From Stramenopiles sp. TOSAG23-2 (taxonomy: Eukaryota): a stretch of DNA of 33,678 nucleotides. The notes beneath the pieces are model-generated. The model worked only from the letters and a program-made list of their open reading frames with translations, ran no database searches and was not told the DNA's origin. Shown here piece after piece: positions 11,678-32,402 of the stretch. Location of the stretch: the NCBI GenBank assembly GCA_900128395.1, contig LT649357.1, positions 1 to 33,678 of the forward strand. Reading direction: 5' to 3'. Position 1 is the stretch's first letter, and the number at the start of each line of letters is the position of its first letter. Both the position numbers and the translations under genes were made by a program.

Positions 11678-11897
11678 TCAATTCTCAAATCTCTCCTTTG
11701 TTTTCACCACCTAACACTGCCTCGTCGCAACAACTACATACAGCCCTGTCTTCTTCAAATGTTTCAACGAATCATCAATACAATCTTCAATTCTCAAATC
11801 TCTCCTTTGTTTTCACCACCTAACACTGCCTCGTCGCAACAACTACATACAGCCCTGTCTTCTTCAAATGTTTCAACGAATCATCAATACAATCTTC
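11678..11897. repeat. Perfect direct tandem duplication, 109-bp period, covering the last codons, stop and 3' flank of the TTI1 fusion gene
   Basis: TCAATTCTCAAATCTCTCC...CAATACAATCT starts at 11678 and again at 11787. Confidence 0.95.
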
Positions 11898-14800
11898 TGT
11901 CAATATACTCAATGAAAACCCATTACGTTCCATGTCTTTAAAAAATTCATATTCACGATCTGCATGTCGTAATTTATACACAATGATAATAATACCATTT
12001 GCATTAATTAATTTCTTAAATGAATTTATTAAATCCGTATAATATGTTGTATCATATAAACAATCGGATGCAAATATCATATCGTATCTTGTATGAACAT
12101 CTTGTTCTATTGCCCAATCAAACGTTTGACACAAAATATCTGTATCCGAAGTAATAAAGTTGGATTCCAATGCAACCTTTACATTGTCCTTTGCTACACT
12201 TACAATTTCTTCAATATCAGTTAAAATAACTTTCTTTGCACCATATATTTGTGCAAGTATACCGCAAAAACCAGTACCACATCCTAAATCAATTACAGTC
12301 TTTCCATTCAAATATTTATCAAATGCTAAATAATGTTCAATGATCTTTGCCAATATTAGACCACAATCCCAAACAACTGCACCTAATCCAACATTTAGCT
12401 TTTGCACGACATTAAATACTTTTCCATCATCATCATCTGTAGTAGTATTATTAATACTAAATTTATATGGAAAAGCTGGTTTATTTGCAACTGCATAATT
12501 AATTCCTAATGATCCGACGGTTTTACCCGACATGTTTATACCAGAATGAAATAAATATGTTTCCAATGGATTGACAGCAAACGGATGGATAATTTTGGAT
12601 GGTATTCCATTTAACATATTGTAAACAAACAAATCATGTTTTACTTGTTGTAAAATATGCGATGGGTCTATATTTAATTTTTCTAACAATGTTAACGATT
12701 TTTTGTTCTTATTACCTTTGTAAATAGGTGTAATAGTATTAGTACCGATTGTTTGTAATGCTAATTCTGGTAAGTTCGTTCGTAATATGTTTGAAATACG
12801 ATCCAATTTATCATCATGTTTAAACAATAATTGTTCTTCCATAATAATTGCATGGAAAACTGATGTTGAATCAATTTTATATAAGTTTAATAAAAGATTG
12901 CAAATATTTTTATGATCATCTCCATCCATAAATCCTTCTGGGATAATTCGCAATGCTTTACAACATGTTGTCGATAATTCCCATACATGTGTATTCAGTA
13001 GAGATGGTGCAAATTTACTTAAATCTAACAAGCTACATAAAATGGTATATATGTATTTATGTGTCGTTGATCGCATCACGTATTTTGCTTTTCGTGATGA
13101 GATTACTTTGGCATTGCTATTATTATTATTATCGCCATCAATATACAATTCATCTAATGTAATCGAATTATTAGATTTAAATAAAGCATTTACTTTAGTT
13201 TTCAATATGTTGATTAATTTTGGCCATAATTCTTTTGAAAATCTTGCCAAGATAAAGTCAGGACATAATTTTGCTATTTGAACAATTCCGAGTAACGATT
13301 CACGTATGACTGGAAAATATTCACTTTCATTATTATCATGTTCATCATTCTTGCTGTGTTTTGTTCTTTGAAAAATATTTAAACGATTATTAATCATATG
13401 GAATCGACTTATTAAATGTTTCCAGACTTCTGCTACTGTTGGCAATAGTTGTTTTTCATTATGATTTAACACCTTGAGTCCAAATGATATACTTTTTATT
13501 ATTTTACATTGCAATATACTTGGACTTTCAGGTAAAAAAATGCATAATTTTCTGATGATTTTTTGGGATACATCCCGTTCCATTTTATATGGTTTATTAT
13601 CTTTATTTTCATCTTTATCGTTGTCCTTTTCTTCTTCTTTTCCCTCATCATCATTTGTTTTCTCATCCTCATCATCGTTCAAATCGTTTAAGATATTTTC
13701 CCATGCAATAATTTCATTTATCAATCCTTGTGTCGACGTTGGCAATTTTATTATAGGAGAAATTGCTTCATCGGCTTTGCCTGTGGTATCGTCTATACCT
13801 TGTTTATCATCATCATCATCATCGATATATTCATCTAAACATGCCATTAAATCTTCAACAGCATATAATAATACTGTTAATATATTTGATGATGTTGCAA
13901 ACATAAATGTATTTCGTTGTACAACTTCTGTATCTAATGCACGTAACAACGTTTGAACGATTTCTTTTAATAATCCACCATATGCTGCATCGACACCACC
14001 AACAGTATGTTTCACTACACTACGAATAACACGAGGTGTGGTTGGATAAATATTTAAAAAATTCAATCGTGAACATATATTATCAATTAAATAATCTACA
14101 TTTGCTTCAATTAGTTGATTGATACTATTATAACCACATACAATACAGATACGTTTAATGCAATATAATGTATTTTGTTGTATTATTGGATCATCATCAC
14201 TTAATTTTTCTAATAATGGATAAATAACATTTAATAAATTTGCTTTAAATGTTTCAATATAATTTTCAGCTATAGTAGCTAAGCGTTGTAAATATAATGA
14301 TGATACAATAACATGTTCTGAATGTTGCAACGTTGTACTTTGTTGTGGTAAACGAATGCCGCCACCACTTACATTTCTTTTATCATCGGAGTTGATTGGG
14401 ATTAATTTTGTATTCAAGTTGGTATTATTATTATTATTATTACCAACATCGTTATTATTGTAAATATGATTGGTTTGATGATGCCATAATTTAGAATTCA
14501 CTGTATTTTTCAAGCAATTTTCAATAAACACGTCGGTTAATTCTTTTTTTGCACCATGAATAATAGAATTGGACATAAAAATACATTCACACGGTGATGA
14601 ATGTCGCCAATCTACGTTGTTATGATTAGTATTTGTACTAGTATTTGCATGATGGTTCATATCTACCATTGTAAATTCTGTTAAATATTCTAATAACATA
14701 CGCCCATCTACAAATGTACCAATTTTCGATAATAATATATGTAACATCTCCTTTGATTGATTATTTTTCATATATTTAAATGGAATATCATAATATCCAA

Positions 14801-16226
14801 TAGCATGATGACGATTCTTAGTAGAGTTCTGGTTGTTATTGTTATTATTATTATTACCTTGTTCCATCGAAATAATTACATTATCATTGTCATATTTTAA
14901 TGGTTGTCGTATACGTGTATTGATATTTTGATAATCTGGTTTTAATATTTTTGAAATATAAAATAATTTCTTTTTAAATTTCATCATGGTAAAAATATTA
15001 TCTTCTAATTTATCTTGTAATAGATCGACATACGCAATTAAAGTTTGTATACGTTTTGTTAATACATTTTCTTCTAATTCAGTATGAATTGTTTTTGCTG
15101 TTAATCTTAATACATCATCAAATCTATTTTCAATACGTTTCCATAAAGTACTTGTTTTATTTTTTATATAAATTTCTTTTACTTTTTCAATTGTTTTATT
15201 TGCATTTTCAACAACTTGATCAGATATGGAAGCGATGGAAAATTGTAATACAATTTCTAAAAAATCATCTTGACATGTTGCCGTCATTGTATTTGAACAA
15301 TCAATTAAAATAACATTTGCAAGTTCAATCGTTTCTAGATGGACTTTGTATCTATTTTGTGATTGTAAGTAATTCAACGAATTGATTGTTTTCAATATAG
15401 TACTTGCAACAATGGATAATTTTGCTGTGGTTTCATATAACCATTTATGATTTCTATTTACCTGTATTTTCTTCTTATCATTCGTATTATCATCATCATT
15501 ATTATTATTGTTTGGTTGTTCTAATGATTTGTTTTCTTCTATGATGGTTCCATTATCATTTATCGGTGTTGTTACTTTCATACCATATGATTGTAATAAT
15601 AATCGTATATTATTCGTATTGTTGTTGTTGCTGTTGTTGTTGTTATTATTATTATTGTTGTTGTTTCGAAAATTTCTTACATCAATATATTGACTTACAT
15701 CATTACTAATTGTTAATTTAATAATAGTTTTCCATAATGAAATTGCTGCACGTAAAACATTATTACCACGTTTTAAATCGCTTTTACCACATATAAGTTT
15801 ATGTACACCACCAGTAATCCCGGGCAAGAAACATGATAATGTATTTGCATCTTGTACATAGGTACAAATATTTTCTAATAATGTTATACTATTCAACATG
15901 TTTACACGATTTCTTGATTGAACGGAAATACTTATTAATACAGCAATAAAATGTCCTAAAATAATACGTTTATCTGCACGTGCAAAGATTTTACCTACGG
16001 TGGGGGTAAATATCTCAGTTAGAATGGCAATTGCTAATGTCTTCGCTTCTTCACTTGTATTACTATTAAATTCACCTTTTTGACTACCTAAAATGGATAC
16101 GGAAAATTGAAAATGTACGACCCATTGTTTTGGATTTGTATCTAAATGTAATCTTGGAATTTGTTGTAACATATTTTCTAATGTTGTTTCTAATTGTATT
16201 CGTTGTTGTTGTTGTGTATTTTTCAT
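11820..16226 (-). CDS. TTI1: TELO2-interacting protein 1 (TTI1, HEAT repeats) fused to a C-terminal Methyltransf_16/METTL21-like lysine methyltransferase, 1468 aa
   Basis: TTI1 motifs LSCFLPGI, IYPLLEKL..CGYNSINQLIEANVDYLID, LLPTVAEVW and CPDFILARF..LWP. The last ~200 aa contain GAVVWD, VIDLGCGTG, VILTD, FDW and IFASDCLYD. Single uninterrupted ORF. Confidence 0.88.
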   Translation of the reverse strand: MKNTQQQQRIQLETTLENMLQQIPRLHLDTNPKQWVVHFQFSVSILGSQKGEFNSNTSEEAKTLAIAILTEIFTPTVGKIFARADKRIILGHFIAVLISISVQSRNRVNMLNSITLLENICTYVQDANTLSCFLPGITGGVHKLICGKSDLKRGNNVLRAAISLWKTIIKLTISNDVSQYIDVRNFRNNNNNNNNNNNSNNNNTNNIRLLLQSYGMKVTTPINDNGTIIEENKSLEQPNNNNNDDDNTNDKKKIQVNRNHKWLYETTAKLSIVASTILKTINSLNYLQSQNRYKVHLETIELANVILIDCSNTMTATCQDDFLEIVLQFSIASISDQVVENANKTIEKVKEIYIKNKTSTLWKRIENRFDDVLRLTAKTIHTELEENVLTKRIQTLIAYVDLLQDKLEDNIFTMMKFKKKLFYISKILKPDYQNINTRIRQPLKYDNDNVIISMEQGNNNNNNNNQNSTKNRHHAIGYYDIPFKYMKNNQSKEMLHILLSKIGTFVDGRMLLEYLTEFTMVDMNHHANTSTNTNHNNVDWRHSSPCECIFMSNSIIHGAKKELTDVFIENCLKNTVNSKLWHHQTNHIYNNNDVGNNNNNNTNLNTKLIPINSDDKRNVSGGGIRLPQQSTTLQHSEHVIVSSLYLQRLATIAENYIETFKANLLNVIYPLLEKLSDDDPIIQQNTLYCIKRICIVCGYNSINQLIEANVDYLIDNICSRLNFLNIYPTTPRVIRSVVKHTVGGVDAAYGGLLKEIVQTLLRALDTEVVQRNTFMFATSSNILTVLLYAVEDLMACLDEYIDDDDDDKQGIDDTTGKADEAISPIIKLPTSTQGLINEIIAWENILNDLNDDEDEKTNDDEGKEEEKDNDKDENKDNKPYKMERDVSQKIIRKLCIFLPESPSILQCKIIKSISFGLKVLNHNEKQLLPTVAEVWKHLISRFHMINNRLNIFQRTKHSKNDEHDNNESEYFPVIRESLLGIVQIAKLCPDFILARFSKELWPKLINILKTKVNALFKSNNSITLDELYIDGDNNNNSNAKVISSRKAKYVMRSTTHKYIYTILCSLLDLSKFAPSLLNTHVWELSTTCCKALRIIPEGFMDGDDHKNICNLLLNLYKIDSTSVFHAIIMEEQLLFKHDDKLDRISNILRTNLPELALQTIGTNTITPIYKGNKNKKSLTLLEKLNIDPSHILQQVKHDLFVYNMLNGIPSKIIHPFAVNPLETYLFHSGINMSGKTVGSLGINYAVANKPAFPYKFSINNTTTDDDDGKVFNVVQKLNVGLGAVVWDCGLILAKIIEHYLAFDKYLNGKTVIDLGCGTGFCGILAQIYGAKKVILTDIEEIVSVAKDNVKVALESNFITSDTDILCQTFDWAIEQDVHTRYDMIFASDCLYDTTYYTDLINSFKKLINANGIIIIVYKLRHADREYEFFKDMERNGFSLSILTEDCIDDSLKHLKKTGLYVVVATRQC

Positions 16227-16569
16227 GATTAATTTGTGTATTGTTTTGTTTTTTAAAGACAGGGTTTGGGTGTTGTTCTTATTGTGTTGGAAAAAAAGGT
16301 GGGGTGGATAGATGATAATTATGTTTTATCTTTCTTTGATGCCATATGAAGTTTTCTTAGTCTCGTCTTTCCTTTCTTTCCTTCATTCAATTCAATTCAT
16401 CACAGTTTTAGTTTCACTTTTATTATGGTCTCTTTTGAGACGAGCAACACGATAATATGTAAGAGATATATTATAGCAACCAAACACACAAAAAAATATA
16501 AATAGAACCATATACTTCCCTTTTTCTTTTCTCTTTTCACTAGTATAGAATAATAATAATAATAATAAT

Positions 16570-17780
16570 ATGGAAGAGTTAATACAAGAATTCCCATCCA
16601 TTGTATTGGAAACAAATGAAAGAACAAAACAACGTAGTATTAAATGTAAACAACCAATTAAAAATAAAGAAATGATATTTCGCTCTAAATTAGCTGCATG
16701 TACTATACATAGAAAGTAAGTTTATTAATAAATAATACTTTTTTGGTGCTATAGATATTTATAATTCATATTACCCCATCTCTTACTATCTTCTTATGCA
16801 AAGATCAAATATTTCATACCACACAAATTCTTTTGTCTAACATTAATTTAATATATTGCAAAAGACATTATAAATTATTATGTTTTGGATGTAAAAGATT
16901 TTATGAAAGTTTAAAATTCACGCAACAAGTTCAATGTGAAGTATGTAAAACAACTTTTTATTGTTCTCTTGAATGTATGGAGGCTGATAAAATATATCAT
17001 AAGCCCCATTGCCAATTATTACCAATAATTGATAAGGATAAAGGATTGAAAAAAGAAGAAACAAGTTTTGTCATTTTATTATTACGGCTACTATCGAATC
17101 TCTATCATAATAACAACAACGATAATAATAATAAGAAGAAGAATTTTATACAATTGAAGCATATTTTAAATATGATGCAAGATAATGCCACGGTGGGAGG
17201 ATACAAAAGGCGTCAGAAGCAGCGGGAAAGGGCTGCAAAATATTTTTTGGCGTTAATGAATAATAGTAATAATAACAATAATAGTCTTGATGATATGTTG
17301 AAAGTACTCCCACAGTTTTTGAATGTAGGTGTACTTACTTCTATATTGGCCGCAGGGCCATTAAATGAATTCGCACTATTTGATGTGGATGGGGAAGCAG
17401 TCGGTTGTGGATATTTTCCACTTGCAGCTATGGCAAACCATAGTTGCATACCGACTGCATCAGTGCAGATTGAAGGCAAGTATATGGTATTTTACGCCAC
17501 GAGAGATCTGGAGGTAGGTGAGGAAATCACTCAGAGTTATGCTAACTTGGGTGATGATGGTAGGTTAACTCGTATGGAAAATATTGAGGTGAGTTGGGGG
17601 TTTACCTGTGTGTGCTTACGTTGTAAAATTGATAGTGGTAGTGGTGGTGATGAGAGTATTTGTAAAAAATTTGATGAAGCAAATGTTTGTGTCTGTGGGG
17701 GTGTGATTGTTCCACAGGCACACCAAGGAAAGAGAGAAGATGATGACTGTAAATGTAATAGTTATAATTTGATTGTGTAA
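16570..17780 (+). CDS. SMYD: SMYD-family SET and MYND domain lysine methyltransferase, 2 exons: 16570-16715, 16865-17780, ~353 aa
   Basis: Exon 1 supplies the N-SET segment (QRSIKCKQPIKNKEMIF). Intron 16716 GTAAGT..CTAAC..AAG 16864 joins in frame. MYND CxxC..CEVC..YCSLEC..H..HC, SET motifs ANHSCIP and GEEITQSY, post-SET WGFTCVCLRC. Confidence 0.9.
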
Positions 17781-18153: not shown

Positions 18154-19140
18154 TCAAATACCAGGTGATAAAAGACTTGCTACTGAATCAGATCGATTGG
18201 AATTTGAAAATACTTTCTTTGTGGAATGCGATGGCGATGGTGTATTTGTATTACTATTATTGTTTTGATTAAATAAAAATGTTGACGGCGATTGTTGTGG
18301 TGGTTGCATTTGTTTTTGTCGCTGCTGCTGTTGTCGTTGTTGCATTACAAATGATGGTGAGCTTACTACATTTACATTATTATTATTATTAACAAATATT
18401 TTTGATTTCAATTTTTCATTTTCAACATTATTATTATTATTACCAGCCATCATTCTTGTCGTCGTCGTCGTCCCAGTACGTCCAACTTCTAATGATTTTG
18501 TATCCTGATTATCAAAATATGATTGTTGTGCATAATTCAATCGTATACTACGATCTTTAATAGCGGACGGTACATCATGTGTTTTATTATTATCATTTCC
18601 ACCACCAAAAGTTGGATGATTGTTATATACAACGAAATTGTTTGTTTGTGGTACATATTGATTTAAACGATAATGTTTATCCAAAAATGACAATAACTTC
18701 GGTGATGGCCTATCATATGCCAATATATGTGGCTCAATACCTTGGTCTTTAAGCATATGTTCAAATAACGTTAAACCAATGCCTTGACGTTGGCAATTTT
18801 CGTTAACATAAAAGTCTAATACACACAACGGAAACATTTCGATCATTCCTCCGCGGCTAGTATGAATAAACAACTTTTTATATCCAACTTTTATAAAACC
18901 AAGTGCAGATTGATAGTTGGATGCCATGTATACAACATGATCTGAAGAACTTAATTTTGATGCTGTCGTTATGACAGCGCCAAGTTGTTGTGCTGAAGCA
19001 GATGCCTGTCCCATCTCATTTATAATTTTAATTACTTCTTTTCCAAATCGTCCTCTCGTTGATGTTTGCAATGAACGACTATCTAAACGTGTTATATTAT
19101 TACCACCTAATACACGTCTTACGGAAAATGGAAAGTTCAT
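18154..19140 (-). CDS. ATAT1: Alpha-tubulin N-acetyltransferase 1 (MEC-17)
   Basis: MGQASASAQQL..IT, GFIKVGYKKLF, PLCVLDFYV.E.CQRQG.G..LF..ML, AYDRPSPKLLSFL.KHY and PQTNNFVV, followed by a disordered N/Q-rich tail. Confidence 0.96.
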   Translation of the reverse strand: MNFPFSVRRVLGGNNITRLDSRSLQTSTRGRFGKEVIKIINEMGQASASAQQLGAVITTASKLSSSDHVVYMASNYQSALGFIKVGYKKLFIHTSRGGMIEMFPLCVLDFYVNENCQRQGIGLTLFEHMLKDQGIEPHILAYDRPSPKLLSFLDKHYRLNQYVPQTNNFVVYNNHPTFGGGNDNNKTHDVPSAIKDRSIRLNYAQQSYFDNQDTKSLEVGRTGTTTTTRMMAGNNNNNVENEKLKSKIFVNNNNNVNVVSSPSFVMQQRQQQQRQKQMQPPQQSPSTFLFNQNNNSNTNTPSPSHSTKKVFSNSNRSDSVASLLSPGI

Positions 19141-19556
19141 AATTATTAATTATTAGTATATAGTATATATATTTTATATTGGGTGAAAAAATATAATATA
19201 GATATATATATATAGTAATGTATCGAAAAGGATGATCTCTGTGCAATATATAAAATGAAAGCGAGGTTGAAAATGAAATAAATTTGTTTTTGATTTCTTC
19301 GTTCTTCCATCTCTGTATATGTCTATCTTTTCTTTCTATAAATTTATTTATTTATTATTTTCAATGTAAATTTGATGAATAACGTTCTCATTTTCACCTT
19401 TTTTTCTCATAGTGTGCCGTGTTATTTTTGGTGTGCGGAAAAGTGCCATGCTATACCCTAATTGGAACATTAAAGTTATGACAAAAATATGGCATCAGCG
19501 CATCAGCACGTTTACTATGCTTGACAGCTTGCTGGGCTTGACAGCATGTACTATTA

Positions 19557-20920: not shown

Positions 20921-21575
20921 TATAATTATTGCAATCAATATTATTATTTCAATCATCTTGACTTATTCAGACAAAATGTGATATTTGCCATACACTGTAA
21001 TATAGTGATGTATATTACCTCCTTCTATGATACTTGATATTTTTTTACAACATATACATATATGAAATATACTATGGATAATTTGTCATTATTGTATTTT
21101 CATATTGGTGTTGAAAATATATTTATGCAAATAAATATAATATCATTTGGCCCTTTTTTATTGTACTGTTGAAAAATGTAGACAATGATGCACCTAAATC
21201 CACAAATCCACACCATAGCCAGATTGCCTCTATAAAATGCTATATGTTGATAACGATATGACATGCTATCCTCATACTAAATACTTATTTGAAAATGATC
21301 CCTTCCCCAATAGTATTTCCATCCTATTCCACCACACCACACCTCCTCTTCCTTCTTTTTTGATGAACAAAACAACAACAACAAAAAACAACAAAAAAAA
21401 CCAAAATTTCATTCATTCATTCAATTTTCAAAACGAGATAGATACAGTGATGATAATCAATAAACCATACATCTTTCTATGATATGTAAAAACAAATAGA
21501 AAACAATACATATAATTACAAAAAAAAATTCCAATCTCTTACGACAAAAAAAATTCCTAATAATAACAACAAAAT

Positions 21576-24239
21576 ATGAAACAGAATTATAAAGTAGGAG
21601 ATGTTGTATGGGTGAAAATGCGTGGCTCACCATGGTGGCCTGCTTCAATACAATTACCAAAAACAAAACAACAACAAGAAGAATTTGAAGATATTATGGA
21701 AAAAAATAATAAGAAAGAAACACGTTTATTTGTAATATTCTTTGGTGATAATTCATATTATTTTGCAAAAAATACCAAAGGAAACGGAGAAATATTACCT
21801 TTTGAAGAACGTAAAGAAGAAATGTTAAAACGTTGTCATTCCAAATTATTTAAAAAAGCTGTAGAAGAAGCAGAAGAATATGTATTAGAAGAAGTTGAGG
21901 AGGAGTCAGAAGAAGATGATGAGTCAAAAGAGGAAGAACAAGACGACGATGATGACAAAGATGATAAAAATAGTCAAAGTGATAGTAATAGTGATTTAGA
22001 AGCATTTGAACCAAGAGCTAGTTTAAGTCCAAGCAAAAACAACAACAATAATAATAATAATAACAACATTGTAATATCAGAAATAGCACCATCTTCTACT
22101 AGGAAAAAAAAACGTAATATGAATAATAATAACATGTTATCTAGTCCACCTGCTAGCCAACCTCATGCAATCGTTCGATCTGCAAGTAGGACCCCTGGTG
22201 GTACGAGGCGTATCAAATGGATTGGAAAATCAATTGGAAATGGTATTGATCGTGAAAAATATTATGATGGATTTCGTTTAGATAGAGATGAATACCATGT
22301 TGGTGATTGCGTTTTCGTACGTATGGATGATGAAGAAGATGATTTATGGGTTGCAGAATTAGAAAGTTTATGGGAAGATAAATACAAAGAAAAATGGTTT
22401 GAAGGACGATGGTTTTATTCTGCATTAAATGCTCGTGCGCATTCCAATTATGGCCAAGGTAGAAATGGTAACAATCGCAATTGGACTGATGCAATATCTC
22501 GACATGAATTGTATGAAAGTGATCATGTAGATGAAAATACAATTGATTGTGTAGAAGGAAAAGCAAAAGTGATAACACAGCAAGAATTTCAAACCTATAA
22601 TCGTTCAAAAAGAAATTCACAACAAGAACAAACTTTTTTTTGTAAAGCATTTTATAGTACAAAAACAAGGATGATACGTCCTATCCTTGGAGCAACAAAA
22701 CGTGTACAACGTGCAAAACTTTATAGTAATCGTTTGATTGATGCATTAAGTGATAATGATGATGAGGATGAGGACGACGAAGAAGATGATTCTGAAGAAG
22801 AGGAAGATGAAATCATAAATAGTAAAAAACGAAAAAAAAATAATAGTAATAATAATAGTAGCTCGAGAAAAAATAAGAAGAAGAAGAAAAAGAAGAATCA
22901 AAATACAGGTAGCAATAATAATACTACTACTACCACGACGACGACGATGATAACAACAACTACTACGAATATAACAAGCAATAACAACAATAAAAATAAG
23001 AAAAAACAATTGTTTGAAAATTGTGCAAAAGCATGTGCTGCATTGCAATTATCACATGTACCGAAATCATTACCATGTCGTGAAAAAGAACGGAAACAAG
23101 TCATGCATTTTTTAAAAAGTGCAGTAGAACGTGGTGGTTTAGGAAGTGCGTTGTATATTTCTGGAATGCCTGGAACAGGTAAAACGGCAACTGTCATGGA
23201 AGTTATACGAACATTAAAGGAAAATGCAAGAAGAGGTTTAAATCCAGATTTCGAATTTATTGAATTAAATGGTATGAAATTGCCTCATCCGTATGAAGCA
23301 TATTCAATTATATGGCGAGGTTTAACTGGTCAAGATGCTGCACCGAAAAAAGCAGCTTCTTTACTCGAACGAAGATTTGCAACGCCATCATCTAAACGAC
23401 AATGTTGTGTCTTATTAGTCGATGAATTGGATTATATGGTAACTAGAAAACAAAGTGTATTATATAATTTGTTTGATTGGCCAAGTAAACGTTATTCCCG
23501 CCTTGTAGTTGTTGGAATTGCCAATACGATGGATTTGCCAGAGCGTTTATTACCACGTATCCATAGTAGGCTTGGATTGGAACGTGTTATTTTTCCAGGT
23601 TATACAGTACCACAAATTGAAACCATCATGAAAGCTCGATTAGGGGAATTAGATGTATTTGAAGATACTGCAGTAGAAATCTGTGCAAGAAAAGTTGCAT
23701 CTATTTCTGGTGATATAAGACGAGCATTACAAATTGCAAGACGTGCAGCAGAGATATGTGATAGAGAAGCAAATGAAATGGCAGAAGAGATAGACCTAAA
23801 TAATACTATTAACAACAACAACAACAACAACAACAGGAGCAAAGATCCATACGTAACGATTCGACATATTAATTTAGCGCATAAAGAATTAACAACAACT
23901 GCATATATATTAGCAATTAAACATGCATCCTTGTTTGAACGGTTATTATTAGCTTCTGTTGTATTGCAAATAAGAGGAAGTGGTTTAGAAGAAGTCATGT
24001 ATGATGATGTTATGAGGAGATTTGAAGGATTATGTCGTACACGTGGTGGTCCAATATCTCATCATCCTTCACGTACTTCCACGAAATCTATATGTAGACG
24101 TTTAGCATCATCCGGATTAATCGTATTAGATCAACGATCGACGGATTGGGATTGGCAACCAAAAATACGATTGAATGTGTTGCCAGATGACGTTGTATAT
24201 GCGTTATCCGGCGATAATACAACAAGGAGTTTGTTTTGA
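21576..24239 (+). CDS. ORC1: Origin recognition complex subunit 1 with N-terminal PWWP, BAH, AAA+ and winged-helix domains
   Basis: PWWP GDVVWVKMRGSPWWP..VIFFGD. BAH YHVGDCVFV..WVAELESLWE..WFY..ELYES. AAA+ LPCREKE, Walker A YISGMPGTGKT, Walker B LLVDELD, LYNLFDWP, GIANTMDLPER and SGDIRRAL. Confidence 0.95.
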   Translation: MKQNYKVGDVVWVKMRGSPWWPASIQLPKTKQQQEEFEDIMEKNNKKETRLFVIFFGDNSYYFAKNTKGNGEILPFEERKEEMLKRCHSKLFKKAVEEAEEYVLEEVEEESEEDDESKEEEQDDDDDKDDKNSQSDSNSDLEAFEPRASLSPSKNNNNNNNNNNIVISEIAPSSTRKKKRNMNNNNMLSSPPASQPHAIVRSASRTPGGTRRIKWIGKSIGNGIDREKYYDGFRLDRDEYHVGDCVFVRMDDEEDDLWVAELESLWEDKYKEKWFEGRWFYSALNARAHSNYGQGRNGNNRNWTDAISRHELYESDHVDENTIDCVEGKAKVITQQEFQTYNRSKRNSQQEQTFFCKAFYSTKTRMIRPILGATKRVQRAKLYSNRLIDALSDNDDEDEDDEEDDSEEEEDEIINSKKRKKNNSNNNSSSRKNKKKKKKKNQNTGSNNNTTTTTTTTMITTTTTNITSNNNNKNKKKQLFENCAKACAALQLSHVPKSLPCREKERKQVMHFLKSAVERGGLGSALYISGMPGTGKTATVMEVIRTLKENARRGLNPDFEFIELNGMKLPHPYEAYSIIWRGLTGQDAAPKKAASLLERRFATPSSKRQCCVLLVDELDYMVTRKQSVLYNLFDWPSKRYSRLVVVGIANTMDLPERLLPRIHSRLGLERVIFPGYTVPQIETIMKARLGELDVFEDTAVEICARKVASISGDIRRALQIARRAAEICDREANEMAEEIDLNNTINNNNNNNNRSKDPYVTIRHINLAHKELTTTAYILAIKHASLFERLLLASVVLQIRGSGLEEVMYDDVMRRFEGLCRTRGGPISHHPSRTSTKSICRRLASSGLIVLDQRSTDWDWQPKIRLNVLPDDVVYALSGDNTTRSLF

Positions 24240-24429: not shown

Positions 24430-26568
24430 CTACTTAATACCAGGTAACGATGGCAAACCTGTTTGATGATGATGACTACCACCACCATCATCACCACCAC
24501 CACTATTAGTCACTTTCACAGGTGCAGGTGCATCTGCAATCCATGGATGTTTCAATGCTTGACTTGGTGTAAAACGTTGTTTCGTATCCCATCGTAAACA
24601 ACCTTCTAAAAATTCAACAAATAATGGATCATTGCATTTCAATGCACTTGAAATATTTCGTGTACCCGGCATACGTTTTCTACCACGAGAATTTGGTACG
24701 ATACGTGGCTCATTGTTGTTTTCAAAGAATAATTTCTTACGTGTAGATGCTTCAATTAATTTAGTTGGTGGTCTTCCACATATTTCCATAATGCATAATA
24801 ATTGTTCTTGTTCATTTTCACCAGGAAAGATTGGATAACCAGTATAAAGTTCTGCTAAGATACATCCAAAACTCCACATATCAATTGGTGTGCCATATGG
24901 CAATCCTAAGATAACTTCTGGACTACGATAAAAACGACTTTGTATATATGTATATACACGTTCATCAACAAAACAACTACTTCCCAAATCAATGACTTTG
25001 ATACCACTTTTATTGGCTTGTTTCAATAAAATATTTTCTGGCTTTAAATCGCAATGTATAATTCGTAATTTCCTCATGAAACGCAGAGAGGCTAAAATTT
25101 GTATTGCAAAACGTCGTATTAAACCAAGGCTAACACCTTGGAAATTGTTGTTTTTAATGAATTCATATAAATTCATACTAAGCAAATTAAATGTAATACA
25201 TAAATGATTGCGGAAATAAAAGTAATCTTTCAAATGTATAATATTACTATTACTGTTTGGATCCTTATCTTTTAAATGCTTTAATACCTTGACTTCCACA
25301 AGTGCTTGATGATGGAAACGTTTTTTATTTCTGATAATTTTCAATGCAACCATTTCCTTATTTTTCATATCATAACATTTCATCACTTGTCCAAATGACC
25401 CTTTACCAACTGTACCTAATACTTCATATCGATATCCAATATGATCATTCACGACAACACGATAATCACCACGTTCATCATCATATCCATGATTATTACC
25501 AACATTTTTCCTAATTTTCTTATCTGGTGCTCCCGTACAATAAATTTCTGGATATTCCAAAATTTCACCATGTTCATAATCAGATAAATCATTCATATAT
25601 AATTTAAATGCTTGTGCTGGAGTTAATGGCCATTGATCATTACCACCTTTGTTGTTGCTATTATTGGTATTATTATTATTATTATTATTATTACCAGTTT
25701 CACCATCATTTGTATTTTTTCCAGGGCTATTTGAAGTATTATTATTATTATTACGATGATGATGATGTTGTTTTGGATGACGTCTTACACCACCAACTGT
25801 ACCACCAAAGATATTTGTCTTTTCTGTACGTTTCGAAGGTCTACCTTTAAATATGTTCCCTCTTAAATTTGAAATTTCATTTTTATTATTATTACTACCG
25901 CTACCACCACCATAACGGGCAGATAACGGTTGATGTACAACTTTTTTATTATCATCATAACCAATTTCTCGTGCCGTAGAAGCTTTTTGTTGTTTATACC
26001 CACCATGATGATGGTGTTTATTTTCATTTGGTCTTTGTTGTGCCCATGAATCCAAATTTAATTTTGGTACTTTTGTTAATTCACTATTAACATTGTGTCG
26101 ATGTTGCCTTCGATTGTTGTTGTTGTTGTTGTTGCTGCTGTTGTTTTTGTTGTTATTGTTGTAATTATTTCCAACTCTTAAACGATTACGATTAAAATTT
26201 TGATTACGATATGGATTATTACTATTCTCACGACGACGATGATGATGATGATGATTATTATTATTATTATTATTATGCATGGAAGATTTATAATGGTTTC
26301 GTCGAGGTTGATATCCACCATTATTATTATTATTATTACTACGTTTCTTTTTTTGATGATGTGCATTTGCAAATGAAAAATTGTTATTACTATTATTACT
26401 ACTACGATGGCTGGTATTTATATTTCCATATTTATAATGTCCACCATTCCCACGTGCAGATCTTGGACTACTGTAATTGGATTTATAACTATGGTTAATA
26501 TTGCTATTGTTGTTGTTATATGGCTTATTTCTACGTGCATTTGATAGTTTCAACGATGGTAAATTCAT
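24430..26568 (-). CDS. DYRK: Dual-specificity tyrosine-phosphorylation-regulated kinase, class 2 (DYRK2/3/4-like), ~712 aa
   Basis: DH box GYDDERGDY, GKGSFGQV, HCDLKPEN, activation loop YTYIQSRFYRSPE, NAPA-like LSDYEHGEILEY, insert NSRGRKRMPG. First ATG is at 26568 (the ORF track starts at an upstream TTG). Confidence 0.95.
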   Translation of the reverse strand: MNLPSLKLSNARRNKPYNNNNSNINHSYKSNYSSPRSARGNGGHYKYGNINTSHRSSNNSNNNFSFANAHHQKKKRSNNNNNNGGYQPRRNHYKSSMHNNNNNNNHHHHHRRRENSNNPYRNQNFNRNRLRVGNNYNNNNKNNSSNNNNNNNRRQHRHNVNSELTKVPKLNLDSWAQQRPNENKHHHHGGYKQQKASTAREIGYDDNKKVVHQPLSARYGGGSGSNNNKNEISNLRGNIFKGRPSKRTEKTNIFGGTVGGVRRHPKQHHHHRNNNNNTSNSPGKNTNDGETGNNNNNNNNTNNSNNKGGNDQWPLTPAQAFKLYMNDLSDYEHGEILEYPEIYCTGAPDKKIRKNVGNNHGYDDERGDYRVVVNDHIGYRYEVLGTVGKGSFGQVMKCYDMKNKEMVALKIIRNKKRFHHQALVEVKVLKHLKDKDPNSNSNIIHLKDYFYFRNHLCITFNLLSMNLYEFIKNNNFQGVSLGLIRRFAIQILASLRFMRKLRIIHCDLKPENILLKQANKSGIKVIDLGSSCFVDERVYTYIQSRFYRSPEVILGLPYGTPIDMWSFGCILAELYTGYPIFPGENEQEQLLCIMEICGRPPTKLIEASTRKKLFFENNNEPRIVPNSRGRKRMPGTRNISSALKCNDPLFVEFLEGCLRWDTKQRFTPSQALKHPWIADAPAPVKVTNSGGGDDGGGSHHHQTGLPSLPGIK

Positions 26569-26841
26569 AATGGTCAAAATGTTATAATGGAATAAATAAA
26601 TATTTTATATATGTAATGTCAAACGATTCGATGATCCAATATATATGATTTGGTATATACAAATATATATATATACGAGAGAGATATAAGCGATACTTTA
26701 TGTATATAATGTAAATTTCTTCAATCATTCACATAATTATATCGTCAATATATACGTCATCTTGTTTTTTTCTATTTTTTTCTATTTATTTTTAAGTTTT
26801 GGTCGGTTTTGTAGAGAAGAAGAGATGTAAAACGCATGGGA

Positions 26842-29415: not shown

Positions 29416-31254
29416 TCAAAACCCAAGTCTTTTCTTTTTCTTTCTTTTATTCATATTATTAATACTACTATTACTACTACCACCACCACCAACACTACCA
29501 CTTGACGATTTCTTCTTCATTAAACTATGTTTATTACTACTAATGGAACTACTTTTTGCTCTTGTTGGTTTTGTTGGTACGATAGATGATGTAGTATTTT
29601 TTTTATTTTTATTACTATTTTTCGTTGTTGCTATAACATTATTAGTACTACTATCAGCTTTTTTTAATATTGGAGTATTTGGTACGAAGTTTGTCGTTAT
29701 TCCCGTCATTACTTGTGGTTGATTAAAACGTAATATCCGACTATATGCCGTACTATCTAAACCTTTTGTAACACCTTGTACTAAATTCCCTTTCAATGTT
29801 TTTGTTGTGGACATGTAATTTAACATATCGCCACGATTTAATTCATGTATATCTTTCTCACTCATTTCCGTCAATGATTCAACATTACTTTCTAAATTAC
29901 TTTGCATATATTCAAATAAATCTTTAGCATTTCCTTGAGATAAATTATATGCAAATACGTATGAATATTTTAACAAATTACGGCAATCGTATACTAATTT
30001 TGCAGCATCTTTATAAAATTGACCATCATCAATCCATTTTGAGCTTTTGCCTTTACTACGTAATTCAGAAACAATTTCTTCCGAACGATTTATTTGTTTC
30101 TTTGCAAATTTCATTCCTTGCTCATGTGCTGTATAGCGTTTGTAATAATGTAAAAAACGATCATTTTCCCCTTCCTCTCCGCTATTATTATTCTTATTAT
30201 TATTACTACTACTACTATCCATTCCTTTGTTTTCTTTTCCATCTCCATTTTTTTTATATTTATTGCAACCATAATAATTACCACTTCCATGTTCCGACCA
30301 TGGTCCTTGGCATATCCAACAAAATGCATGGCCGCATTGTTTACAATTAACTTTATTACAACCTTGATTTTTTTCAATTCGTGTCAGACATTTTGGACAT
30401 TTCTTCGTATTTTCCAATATCCATTGTGCATTACCACCTTGTGTACCACAACGTTCTAACCATTCGTTTTTCTCTTTGCATGTGATTGGAAAATGCGATT
30501 CTTCCCCACATTTAAAGCAAAAATTGCAACCACAATTGCATACGATTTCTTTTGCTGCTCCTGTTCCTTGAACAGCTTTGCCACAATTTTGACCTGGGCA
30601 CCATTTGATCATACGATTTATATCAACATATGATTCAATCAAAAATTTTTGATATTTAGTATGTATATCTTTGGATAATATTTTTTCAAATGTAATTTCC
30701 GGTACAATTTCACAACAATCCTTCATTGGACAGACGGTGAAAATGCATGTACTACCTTCTAACACTTTATATTTTAAATATGGTTCCCAACAATCTTGGC
30801 AAAATCTATGTCCACATGCTAAACCAGCTGTTTCACCATATGGAAACGTATCATAACATATTCTACATGTAACTTGTTTTGCAGCGGGTGATGGTGGTAA
30901 CGTTTTATTATGTAAACCAACGGCATTTGTAACACCGGAAGTATCTACTACTAATTTTGTATTTGCATAATATTTTTCTATTAAAACTTCTTTGCTCCAT
31001 CCATAATTGCGTAATAATGCAGCAGCAATGTCAACGGTTAATCCAAACAAATCAGCGATTTCATTGATAATAAGTTTTTGCTCTGTTTTAATATCTTCCG
31101 CTTCGATAATTCGATATTCTAAGTTTGATGCTATAATAGTTGGTGATGGACCGTCGTTACTAAGTGATTCTGTTGGTTCTTCCTCTGCAAACATCATATC
31201 ATCTTCTTCTTCTTCATCGGAATATCCACCATAAAAATCTTCATCGGAGGACAT
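29416..31254 (-). CDS. ARIH1: Ariadne-family RBR E3 ubiquitin ligase, ~612 aa
   Basis: Acidic N-terminus from ATG 31254 (MSSDEDFY), UBA-like ALLRNYGW, RING1 CRICY..CGHRFC..CW, IBR WCPG..C.CG..FC..C...H.P..C, RING2 CPKC..IEKNQGC..CGHAFCWIC, Ariadne domain RFLHYY.RY..H. Confidence 0.94.
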   Translation of the reverse strand: MSSDEDFYGGYSDEEEEDDMMFAEEEPTESLSNDGPSPTIIASNLEYRIIEAEDIKTEQKLIINEIADLFGLTVDIAAALLRNYGWSKEVLIEKYYANTKLVVDTSGVTNAVGLHNKTLPPSPAAKQVTCRICYDTFPYGETAGLACGHRFCQDCWEPYLKYKVLEGSTCIFTVCPMKDCCEIVPEITFEKILSKDIHTKYQKFLIESYVDINRMIKWCPGQNCGKAVQGTGAAKEIVCNCGCNFCFKCGEESHFPITCKEKNEWLERCGTQGGNAQWILENTKKCPKCLTRIEKNQGCNKVNCKQCGHAFCWICQGPWSEHGSGNYYGCNKYKKNGDGKENKGMDSSSSNNNKNNNSGEEGENDRFLHYYKRYTAHEQGMKFAKKQINRSEEIVSELRSKGKSSKWIDDGQFYKDAAKLVYDCRNLLKYSYVFAYNLSQGNAKDLFEYMQSNLESNVESLTEMSEKDIHELNRGDMLNYMSTTKTLKGNLVQGVTKGLDSTAYSRILRFNQPQVMTGITTNFVPNTPILKKADSSTNNVIATTKNSNKNKKNTTSSIVPTKPTRAKSSSISSNKHSLMKKKSSSGSVGGGGSSNSSINNMNKRKKKKRLGF

Positions 31255-32402
31255 TGTGTATGAGTGTGTTTGTTTCTTTGCTTTATTTATATATAAATTA
31301 GTTTTTCTTGTTACAAAATCTTTCAAATTATAACAGCTTATATAGTTTTCAAAGAATAATAAATAAAATGATGATGATTTTGTAATAAATTTTAATTCTA
31401 TTTTTTTTACTTTCAAAAAAAAAAATTGAATACAATATATAAGAAAAACAAAATGATTATTGTATTATATAAACGTGATAATTATATACGTATGTATTCA
31501 AAAAACGTGTAATAATTGTTTTTTTCTTTGTTTTACTCTTCTATACTCTTGAGGATCGTCTAGCTCAGTTATCTCGCTTTGGATTGATTGAAAACCAGTG
31601 GAAATAACGTTTTTTTTATTTTATCCCGAGTTTATACCAATTTTATACAACAATAAACATATAGGGGATAATGTGGTACAGATGAATGTAGTGATTCCAG
31701 TGATGTAAAGTAAATATTATCATGGAATAGTTTCAAATTCTTTTTCTTTCATTTATTAATTCAGTGCATTTTCGGAAACGTTAACTGAAAATCAATTCGC
31801 ACAAACCAGGGCACACCGAGCACACGCAACAGCCAAATATAACACTTAACATGGGAATATCACTATTTACATCTACCATTGGAATATCATTACGAATACT
31901 TTAATAAACAAATAAAAAAGTTAGTACTGAACCTATTGTGCTATTGTAAGCTATTAATAAGTTGTTAAAAATCAATCAGGAATTTTCATCATCTAAAAAT
32001 AATATCGATTAACTGAATGAAATTGGTAAATAATTATTTAATTATCGGATATTATTATTCCCACTCCCACACTCTAAACAGTCAGTTTGGTAACTTAAAA
32101 AAGTAAACCACACGCTAAAATTTGATGATTTGTGCATTTCTTTTCAGCAAAAAAAAAAACAACAACAACAGCAACAATAACAAGCACACAACACGGGGAT
32201 AGTCTAAAAAACTCTAATATACTATATACTTTTTTACTTGAAAAAAAAAAAAAAAACACAACAAAAAAAAACTACTCGACGACAAGCACACAAAAGCGTC
32301 CTGTAATAATACATATCATGTTAATGTAAGATACAAGATACAGTATATCTAAAGTGTAGCGACTACACTGTATATATACAAAGAAGATATACTGTATACC
32401 AC

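Follow-up and report, generated by a model that had tools for sequence, protein, structure and literature searches.

An ORC1 protein with an N-terminal PWWP domain ahead of its BAH and AAA+ parts in a probable marine stramenopile

The 33,678-nucleotide stretch of DNA analysed here (contig LT649357.1, referred to below in its full length as the window) contains a gene for ORC1, subunit 1 of the origin recognition complex (ORC), at 21576-24239 on the forward strand. Its product carries a PWWP domain ahead of a BAH domain and an AAA+ ATPase, and this combination is very rare among ORC1 proteins, as judged over the nearest 150 representatives. We consider it probable that the PWWP domain is a flexibly tethered extra chromatin anchor of ORC in the ORC1 of this clade, gained at the extreme N terminus. 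No member of the family has the first aromatic residue of the methyl-lysine cage, and so the domain would most likely recognize a histone surface, or the DNA of the nucleosome or linker, and not methyl-lysine in the classical three-walled manner. A preliminary description of the same DNA had pictured an independently acquired, canonical PWWP reader of H3K36me2/3 that could direct origin licensing to H3K36-methylated chromatin; the fusion and its lineage-restricted gain were borne out by the analysis, whilst the methyl-reading part was not.

The gene occupies a stop-to-stop open reading frame at 21567-24239 (+), the first ATG of which lies at 21576, and its product is 887 amino acids long. The window is AT-rich, with a guanine plus cytosine (G+C) content of approximately 30%, and the host is probably an uncultured, AT-rich marine protist belonging to the stramenopiles; the data bear this placement out in two respects only, the nearest named sequence among the matches listed, which is the ORC1 of the stramenopile Hondaea fermentalgiana (37% identity), and the seawater source of the RNA runs described below. 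The gene and its parts are laid out as follows.

21576..24239, plus strand: whole ORC1 coding sequence, 887 codons and a stop in a single frame, no intron needed; best PDB matches are to human ORC1
21597..21881, plus strand: PWWP domain, residues 8-102 (Pfam PF00855, E 3.7e-16; predicted model; Foldseek)
21882..22211, plus strand: linker, residues 103-212, disordered, with acidic, Asn-rich and basic parts, RKKKR at residues 176-180 and S/T-P sites
22290..22670, plus strand: BAH domain, residues 239-365 by Pfam PF01426 (folded over residues 213-356 in the model), with W258, W279 and Y281
22656..23003, plus strand: second disordered region, residues 361-476, with an acidic run, a Lys run and Thr/Asn runs (prediction confidence below 50)
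23070..23789, plus strand: AAA+ ATPase and lid, residues 499-738 (Pfam AAA, AAA_16, AAA_22, AAA_lid_10)
23913..24203, plus strand: C-terminal winged helix (Cdc6_C), residues 780-876 (Pfam PF09079)

Among PDB sequences, human ORC1 chains are the best matches to the full-length protein (E 1.4e-91), ahead of human CDC6 (7.8e-43), and a profile built from the family separates the two further (human ORC1 5e-134 versus CDC6 6.3e-68). The Pfam matches to BAH (residues 239-365, E 4.1e-17), to AAA (residues 527-665, E 2.6e-15, plus lid domains) and to Cdc6_C (E 3.2e-08, 33.9 bits against a cut-off of 25.1) are accompanied by an intact Walker A motif, GMPGTGKT at residues 530-537, and an intact Walker B motif, LLVDELD at residues 613-619, the columns of which are invariant across a 14-row alignment. 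Judged by its sequence, the product of 21576-24239 is ORC1, and neither CDC6 nor a degenerate copy. The PHD family is absent from the 25 Pfam rows obtained at E <= 1 for the 887-residue protein, which does not have the BAH-PHD arrangement of the plant type. A full-length AlphaFold2 model, built on the 14-row alignment, has a mean predicted local distance difference test (pLDDT) score of 64.6 and folds the PWWP domain, the BAH domain, the AAA+ part and the winged helix; pLDDT falls below 50 at residues 113-210 and 361-476. These two stretches lie between folded parts, and the PWWP domain is therefore predicted to hang on a flexible tether. The layout is PWWP, approximately 100 disordered residues, BAH, approximately 115 disordered residues, AAA+ ATPase and winged helix.

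The PWWP domain itself is recognized by profile, by pairwise search and by predicted structure. Residues 8-102 match positions 1-91 of the 93 in PF00855 with 59.8 bits against a gathering cut-off of 25.6, and the motifs quoted in the preliminary description are all found (GSPWWP at residues 17-22, VIFFGD at residues 53-58 and LFKKAVEEAEEY). A phmmer search of residues 1-110 against PDB sequences gave 59 matches at E <= 1, the best being NSD2 (E 1.2e-10), followed by DNMT3B, HDGF, NSD3, PWWP2B, LEDGF, MSH6 and further PWWP proteins; the rows other than PWWP were two fungal lectin entries at E ~1e-3, in which no stretch passed. An AlphaFold2 model of residues 1-110, made from a five-row family alignment, has a mean pLDDT of 82.1. 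It forms a five-strand barrel (strands at residues 10-14, 20-25, 50-55, 61-65 and 72-75); a helix (31-43) is inserted after strand 2, before strand 3, and two C-terminal helices (76-86 and 90-108) follow the last strand. When this model was compared with the PDB using Foldseek, 48 matches were obtained at E <= 0.001, and all those listed are PWWP domains (HDGF, PSIP1/LEDGF, PWWP2B, HRP3 including complexes with DNA and H3K36me2, HRP-2 and NSD2), with E down to 1.3e-5 and a target-normalised template modelling (TM) score of up to 0.79. In the family, the PWWP part keeps 19 invariant columns over five lineages that are only 44-46% identical there; basic residues are also kept, K14 being invariant and a helix at about residues 85-94 being rich in Lys and Arg. 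The model and its structural matches show the PWWP fold in this ORC1 to be genuine. The earlier wording, a canonical PWWP in frame with BAH and AAA+, stands as regards a real PWWP domain in one frame; ‘canonical’ overstates the case, as the first cage aromatic is gone.

The methyl-lysine cage was assessed against that of the NSD2 PWWP1 domain, which consists of Y233, W236 and F266, and in which Y233A or F266A abolishes binding of a cage ligand (bioRxiv 10.1101/2020.11.25.398586; here and below, papers are cited from those parts of each that were available). The two places at issue are the following.

21627..21641, plus strand: S-P-W-W-P motif, residues 18-22; Ser18 stands at the first cage aromatic and W21 at the second (NSD2 reads G-Y233-P-W-W236-P)
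21738..21749, plus strand: F55-F56-G57-D58 at the end of strand 3; F55 stands opposite NSD2 F266, the third cage residue

In the ungapped alignment of VWVKMRGSPWWP to VWSKVSGYPWWP, Ser18 lies opposite NSD2 Y233 and W21 opposite W236, and D58 is found opposite NSD2 D269. Over the five lineages of the family the first cage position reads S, N, H, H and N. All five keep W21, either F or Y stands at position 55, and position 58 is D except in cluster P0003, where it is G. With Ser18 in place of Y233 and with S/N/H/H/N across the family, the domain fails the defining feature of the methyl-reading subclass, a cage of three aromatic residues, and by alignment only W21 and F55 remain of it. The importance of the missing residue is illustrated by Drosophila P75, where mutation of the equivalent residue (Y23A) abolishes both DNA binding in vitro and chromatin localization in vivo (PMC11910589). 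In Arabidopsis, PWO1-3 carry Gly at the first aromatic position, and proteins with incomplete cages, for example RBBP1, have been described as lacking methyl specificity (bioRxiv 10.1101/226183). Among seven other PWWP proteins recovered by the family profile, the first cage residue is C, H, F, F, F and P in the six with a recognizable motif, the seventh having none that could be recognized; so few proteins, chosen with such bias, do not yield a background rate.

The assignment as a canonical H3K36me2/3 reader could therefore not be upheld, with Ser18 at the Y233 position, S/N/H/H/N in the family and such PWWP domains described as not methyl-specific. The larger model built upon it, in which the PWWP domain reads H3K36me2/3 and binds DNA, and so steers ORC and licensing to H3K36-methylated transcribed chromatin, is not supported as it was stated; it is possible, yet rather unlikely, and is not the likeliest reading because the PWWP domains of PWO1 and RBBP1, in which the first cage aromatic is likewise missing, have been described as lacking methyl specificity. 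It is favoured by the closest matches of the domain, NSD2, HDGF, LEDGF and HRP3, which include HRP3 entries with DNA and an H3K36me2 peptide, by the retention of W21, F55 and Asp58, and by the His at the first position in two family lineages. It has to contend with Ser, Asn or His at the first aromatic in all five lineages, with the loss of binding in the NSD2 and P75 mutants, with the shared defect of PWO1 and RBBP1, and with the replacement of Asp58 by Gly in P0003.

The BAH domain presents a different picture. Its nearest relatives by sequence are the BAH domains of polybromo (E 4.5e-10), TNRC18 and BAHCC1, and not a solved ORC1 BAH domain; the profile match to the human ORC1 BAH domain is weak (domain E-value 0.29, over chain residues 10-107 only). 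When aligned with BAHCC1, the domain has W258 at the Tyr of ‘PYIGRI’ and W279-F280-Y281 at ‘W-F-Y’. The H3K27me3 cage of BAHD1 is formed by Y645, W667 and Y669, each of which, when mutated to alanine, leads to loss of binding (PMC4791424, PMC8096256), and the Y2533A variant of BAHCC1 is defective in H3K27me3 binding (PMC12219854). The spacing of these positions is 21 residues both here and in BAHCC1 and 22 in BAHD1, the identity of the BAHCC1 cage being deduced from spacing and paralogy. We infer that W258, W279 and Y281 occupy the aromatic positions of the BAHCC1/BAHD1 type. Since the BAH domain keeps these three positions, it would be the likelier methyl-lysine reader of the two modules. In the two thraustochytrid-like ORC1 sequences, P0013 and P0015, the W258 column holds no aromatic and the Y281 column holds Val. 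According to a recent review, mammalian ORC1 has the BAH cage, yeast ORC1 does not, Drosophila ORC1 has part of it, and C. elegans ORC1 has no BAH domain (PMC12719912); because these organisms differ in BAH or its cage, variation at the N-terminal end of ORC1 is the rule.

Together, through multivalency, the PWWP and BAH domains may lengthen the dwell time of ORC on particular nucleosomes, in a genome whose origins are presumably not fixed by DNA sequence alone. A more specific version would make of them a two-handed nucleosome reader, in which the BAH domain reads a methyl-lysine mark through its aromatic triad and the PWWP domain clamps the DNA next to it and/or the H3 tail near K36, possibly through a pocket of two aromatics, so that origins are set by the combinatorial state of the chromatin. 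This is unlikely. If it were true, the origins of this group of ocean flagellates would be chosen by combinatorial chromatin state, and not by DNA sequence or by the BAH domain alone.

The distribution of the architecture was followed in two large collections. A word-indexed search of 5.8 billion proteins returned 1,104 matches, and PF00855 was found in 5 of the best 120 that were listed; all five also carry the BAH and AAA families, and these PWWP-ORC1 clusters are 99% (P0002), 66% (P0003), 56% (P0004), 55% (P0005) and 55% (P0006) identical to the protein studied here. Some public proteins of the family are already labelled ‘origin recognition complex subunit 1’, and the sequence itself is not new. 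A HMMER search of 1.84 billion representatives at 50% identity yielded 1,117 at E <= 1e-30, the best 150 of which, split into batches of 67, 71 and 12, were scanned with Pfam at E <= 1e-5, the batch of 71 being repeated as two halves at E <= 1e-4. BAH was found in 74 of these 150 ORC1 representatives, PHD in nine, PWWP in one (P0005), MBD in one, and Tudor_5 and Tudor_3 in one each, possibly in a single protein; the halves of the 71-member batch showed KAP_NTPase and no PWWP at E <= 1e-4. The rarity of PWWP+BAH+AAA+ among ORC1 proteins holds for these nearest 150 of the 1,117 representatives at E <= 1e-30.

A local hidden Markov model of the family PWWP domain, run over 335 collected proteins, matched the family members and seven non-ORC1 PWWP proteins only, and a profile of the PWWP part, run against proteins of 194-2,000 residues, gave 12 matches, namely the five ORC1 clusters and the seven other PWWP proteins. 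AAA+ is found in none of those seven, and no donor protein can be named from the profile search. A word-indexed search with residues 1-110 recovered only the 99% cluster among 164 candidates and is too insensitive to inform, and the ESM Atlas look-alikes are ordinary ORC1 and CDC6 clusters, with no PWWP in the top three families, and are uninformative on rarity. As for other readers, PHD-bearing ORC1 had been taken to be a plant feature; a chlorarachniophyte ORC1 (P0016) also carries PF00628, and so the restriction to plants does not hold in these data. The PHD, MBD and Tudor carriers among the 150 (P0187-P0328 and others) may include mergers of gene models. ORC1 may have acquired different chromatin readers several times. 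Within the cluster of P0004, one 1,254-residue gene model (P0155), taken from a set of protist proteins, places the family PWWP domain at residues 428-528, behind some 420 extra residues; it is probably a merger with a neighbouring gene, and could be a longer isoform.

No description of the PWWP-ORC1 architecture was found in the literature, supplementary tables, which could list it, lying outside the texts covered. In the available part of a 2025 review of licensing, PWWP, PHD and H3K36 are not mentioned (PMC12719912), and the available part of a preprint on the evolution of eukaryotic chromatin contains neither ORC1 nor ‘origin recognition’; the latter does state that 92% of reader genes code for a single reader type.

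The history of the domain was examined in a quick IQ-TREE run (29 rows, 753 columns, LG+C20+F+G4 by posterior mean site frequencies). The five PWWP-bearing sequences form one clade, with an SH-like approximate likelihood ratio test (SH-aLRT) support of 98, and its sister, with support of 100, is a group of BAH-only sequences, P0008, P0009, P0010 and P0012; thraustochytrid-like and other ORC1 sequences fall outside both. P0008-P0010 are 44-46% identical to the protein studied here, 667-732 residues long, and carry BAH without PWWP, with a short basic tail directly before the BAH domain; P0012 is 43% identical. The PWWP label requires one change on the tree, which was equalled in none of 500 shuffles. 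The simplest history suggested by the tree is a single N-terminal addition of PWWP in the ancestor of the clade, and the linker would then still contain the old basic N-terminal tail (‘SPPASQPH’ here, to be set beside ‘ISPPPSSP’ of P0009). An independent, lineage-restricted gain, as the preliminary description had supposed, is thereby supported, with one bearer in the nearest 150 representatives (the best of 1,117) and the bearers in a single clade.

The same tree could be produced by gene duplication. The PWWP form would then be a second, specialized ORC1 paralogue beside a BAH-only ORC1 in the same genomes, comparable to Sir3 and yeast Orc1 or to plant ORC1a and ORC1b, with a chromatin job other than, or added to, general origin licensing. 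The immediate sister position of the BAH-only clade, at 43-46% identity to the PWWP form, is a pattern that duplication would also give. We nevertheless regard this as quite improbable: the PWWP clade keeps Walker A, Walker B and the other ATPase columns whole and without variation, unlike a degenerate Sir3-type copy, and it is the PWWP form that matches human ORC1 best. Amino-acid composition (FYMINK/GARP) paired no BAH-only sequence with this AT-rich genome, a weak and non-discriminating test.

That the PWWP and BAH parts belong to one gene is indicated chiefly by the frame between them. The 136 codons from 21882 to 22289 are free of stops, for which the chance is ~1.4e-5 at the base composition of the window, and the remaining five frames of this interval contain 3 to 32 stops. 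The frame recurs, with 886 codons from stop to stop, in another contig of the species (L001). In L002, from a relative of 66% identity and 41% G+C, it spans 868 codons and contains WWP, the BAH motifs, Walker A and Walker B, even though the linker there has a different sequence and length. The N termini of the relatives all start a few residues ahead of PWWP strand 1. The fusion of PWWP, BAH and AAA+ claimed in the preliminary description is thus confirmed as one 887-codon frame that is kept in L001 and L002.

RNA evidence was taken from four marine libraries of the poly(A)/oligo-dT kind, one from each of four studies. In their contigs, pieces cover 21703-21902 (the PWWP end into the linker), 22122-22272 (linker into BAH) and 22347-22630 (BAH), and also much of the ATPase part. 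As to transcript continuity across 21880-22250, the check that the preliminary description had named, there are RNA pieces on both sides and none spanning 21902-22122. One run contained a joint, 21965->22751, that would skip 785 nucleotides as an intron; it was rejected, since it includes 17 foreign letters, has a shorter side of 21 and ends in AA..AG, and it was attributed to a cross-match of two acidic runs of the GAA/GAT type. It is highly improbable that the fusion is an artefact, either a separate small PWWP gene upstream of ORC1 that is read through on paper or a misassembly of two loci: the gap in the RNA and the low-complexity linker, of a kind badly handled by assemblers, would allow it, and against it stand the open linker, the conservation of the frame in L001, in L002 despite the different linker and base composition, and in five protein clusters whose gene calls come from many separate contigs, and the shared starting point of the relatives just before PWWP strand 1.

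Several observations weigh against the PWWP domain being a tethered anchor that does without methyl-lysine recognition. The defect of the cage is an alignment result; W21 and F/Y55 are conserved, His occupies the first position in two lineages, and two-walled pockets made of two aromatics, so-called half-cages, bind methyl-lysine in some other reader folds. The domain is nearly neutral in charge (19 K+R versus 17 D+E), less basic than would be expected of a strong DNA binder. The tree is the product of a quick search only, and a PWWP exon lying upstream in the sister clade would be missed because the sequences are single-ORF (open reading frame) calls and one gene model; the BAH-only clade itself could consist of sister species or of a second ORC1 copy in the same genomes. 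Finally, no marine RNA contig bridges 21902-22122, so that the RNA does not establish a single transcript; as the tool skips the repeats there, this gap speaks neither for nor against one.

Other genes in the window are of several kinds. At 11820-16325 (-) a 1,501-residue frame combines the N-terminal, central and C-terminal domains of TTI1 (TELO2-interacting protein 1) with a C-terminal Methyltransf_16 lysine methyltransferase domain (E 6.4e-29), a combination of which we know of no description. It is followed at 16755-17780 (+) by a frame for a SET and MYND-finger (SMYD-like) methyltransferase and at 18154-19149 (-) by a Mec-17-type alpha-tubulin acetyltransferase (E 2.9e-57), which fits a flagellated cell. 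Convergent with the 3' end of the ORC1 gene, with approximately 190 bases between the two stop codons, is a protein kinase at 24430-26604 (-) (Pkinase E 1e-54) that has a long Asn/His-rich N-terminal half, and an ordinary-looking Ariadne-type RBR E3 ligase (UBA_ARI1, RING, IBR), in which no UBC match was seen, lies at 29416-31464 (-).

How the sites of helicase loading are chosen in eukaryotes without sequence-defined origins is still unsettled. The known links to chromatin are the ORC1 BAH domain in mammals and the BAH-PHD cassette in plants, and the PWWP domain would be a third, independently gained module. The PWWP domain here, alongside PHD, MBD and Tudor domains in other relatives of ORC1, suggests that the N terminus of ORC1 is a place where chromatin readers have repeatedly docked, a case also made for MSH6. 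Should the PWWP domain bind a defined mark or DNA feature, this clade would offer a natural experiment on chromatin-directed origin licensing. With its incomplete cage, the domain is also well suited to testing what a ‘two-wall’ PWWP domain still recognizes. Practical value is limited in that the organisms are uncultured; the domains can be produced recombinantly.

Among known systems, the closest likeness is to plant ORC1a/ORC1b, which also have a second histone-reader module beside BAH and likewise show that the N-terminal region of ORC1 takes reader fusions; in Arabidopsis ORC1b the BAH and PHD domains jointly read the H3 tail (PMC6013494). The added module is a PWWP barrel here and a zinc finger in plants, and it sits at the extreme N terminus on a disordered tether of approximately 100 residues, whereas in plants BAH and PHD form one cassette. 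Mammalian ORC1 belongs to the same family and also has an N-terminal BAH domain, a reader of H4K20me2 that ties ORC to a histone mark through an aromatic cage (PMC12719912, PMC12219854); it has no PWWP domain, and the BAH domain described here is nearer to those of polybromo, TNRC18 and BAHCC1 than to that of any solved ORC1.

As to the PWWP domain, the best structural and sequence matches of residues 1-110 are the PWWP domains of HDGF, LEDGF (PSIP1), HRP2, HRP3 and NSD2. They differ in that NSD2, DNMT3B and chain 9hd7_P have Tyr or Phe before P-x-W-P, where Ser18 is found here, and in the helix inserted here between strands 2 and 3 (residues 31-43). In the replacement of the first cage aromatic the domain resembles PWO1-3 of Arabidopsis and RBBP1, to which it is likened by description only; domains of this type keep histone H3 binding, with methyl specificity not shown (bioRxiv 10.1101/226183), and their host proteins are unrelated to ORC1. 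The nearest parallel for the fusion as an evolutionary event is MSH6, which has gained N-terminal histone-reader domains repeatedly and independently (bioRxiv 10.1101/2024.10.15.618488; neither ‘ORC’ nor ‘origin recognition’ occurs in the available part of that preprint). MSH6-PWWP in animals and MSH6-Tudor in plants and some stramenopiles are, like the ORC1 described here, DNA-maintenance proteins with an N-terminal reader on a disordered tether, the host serving mismatch repair there and origin licensing here.

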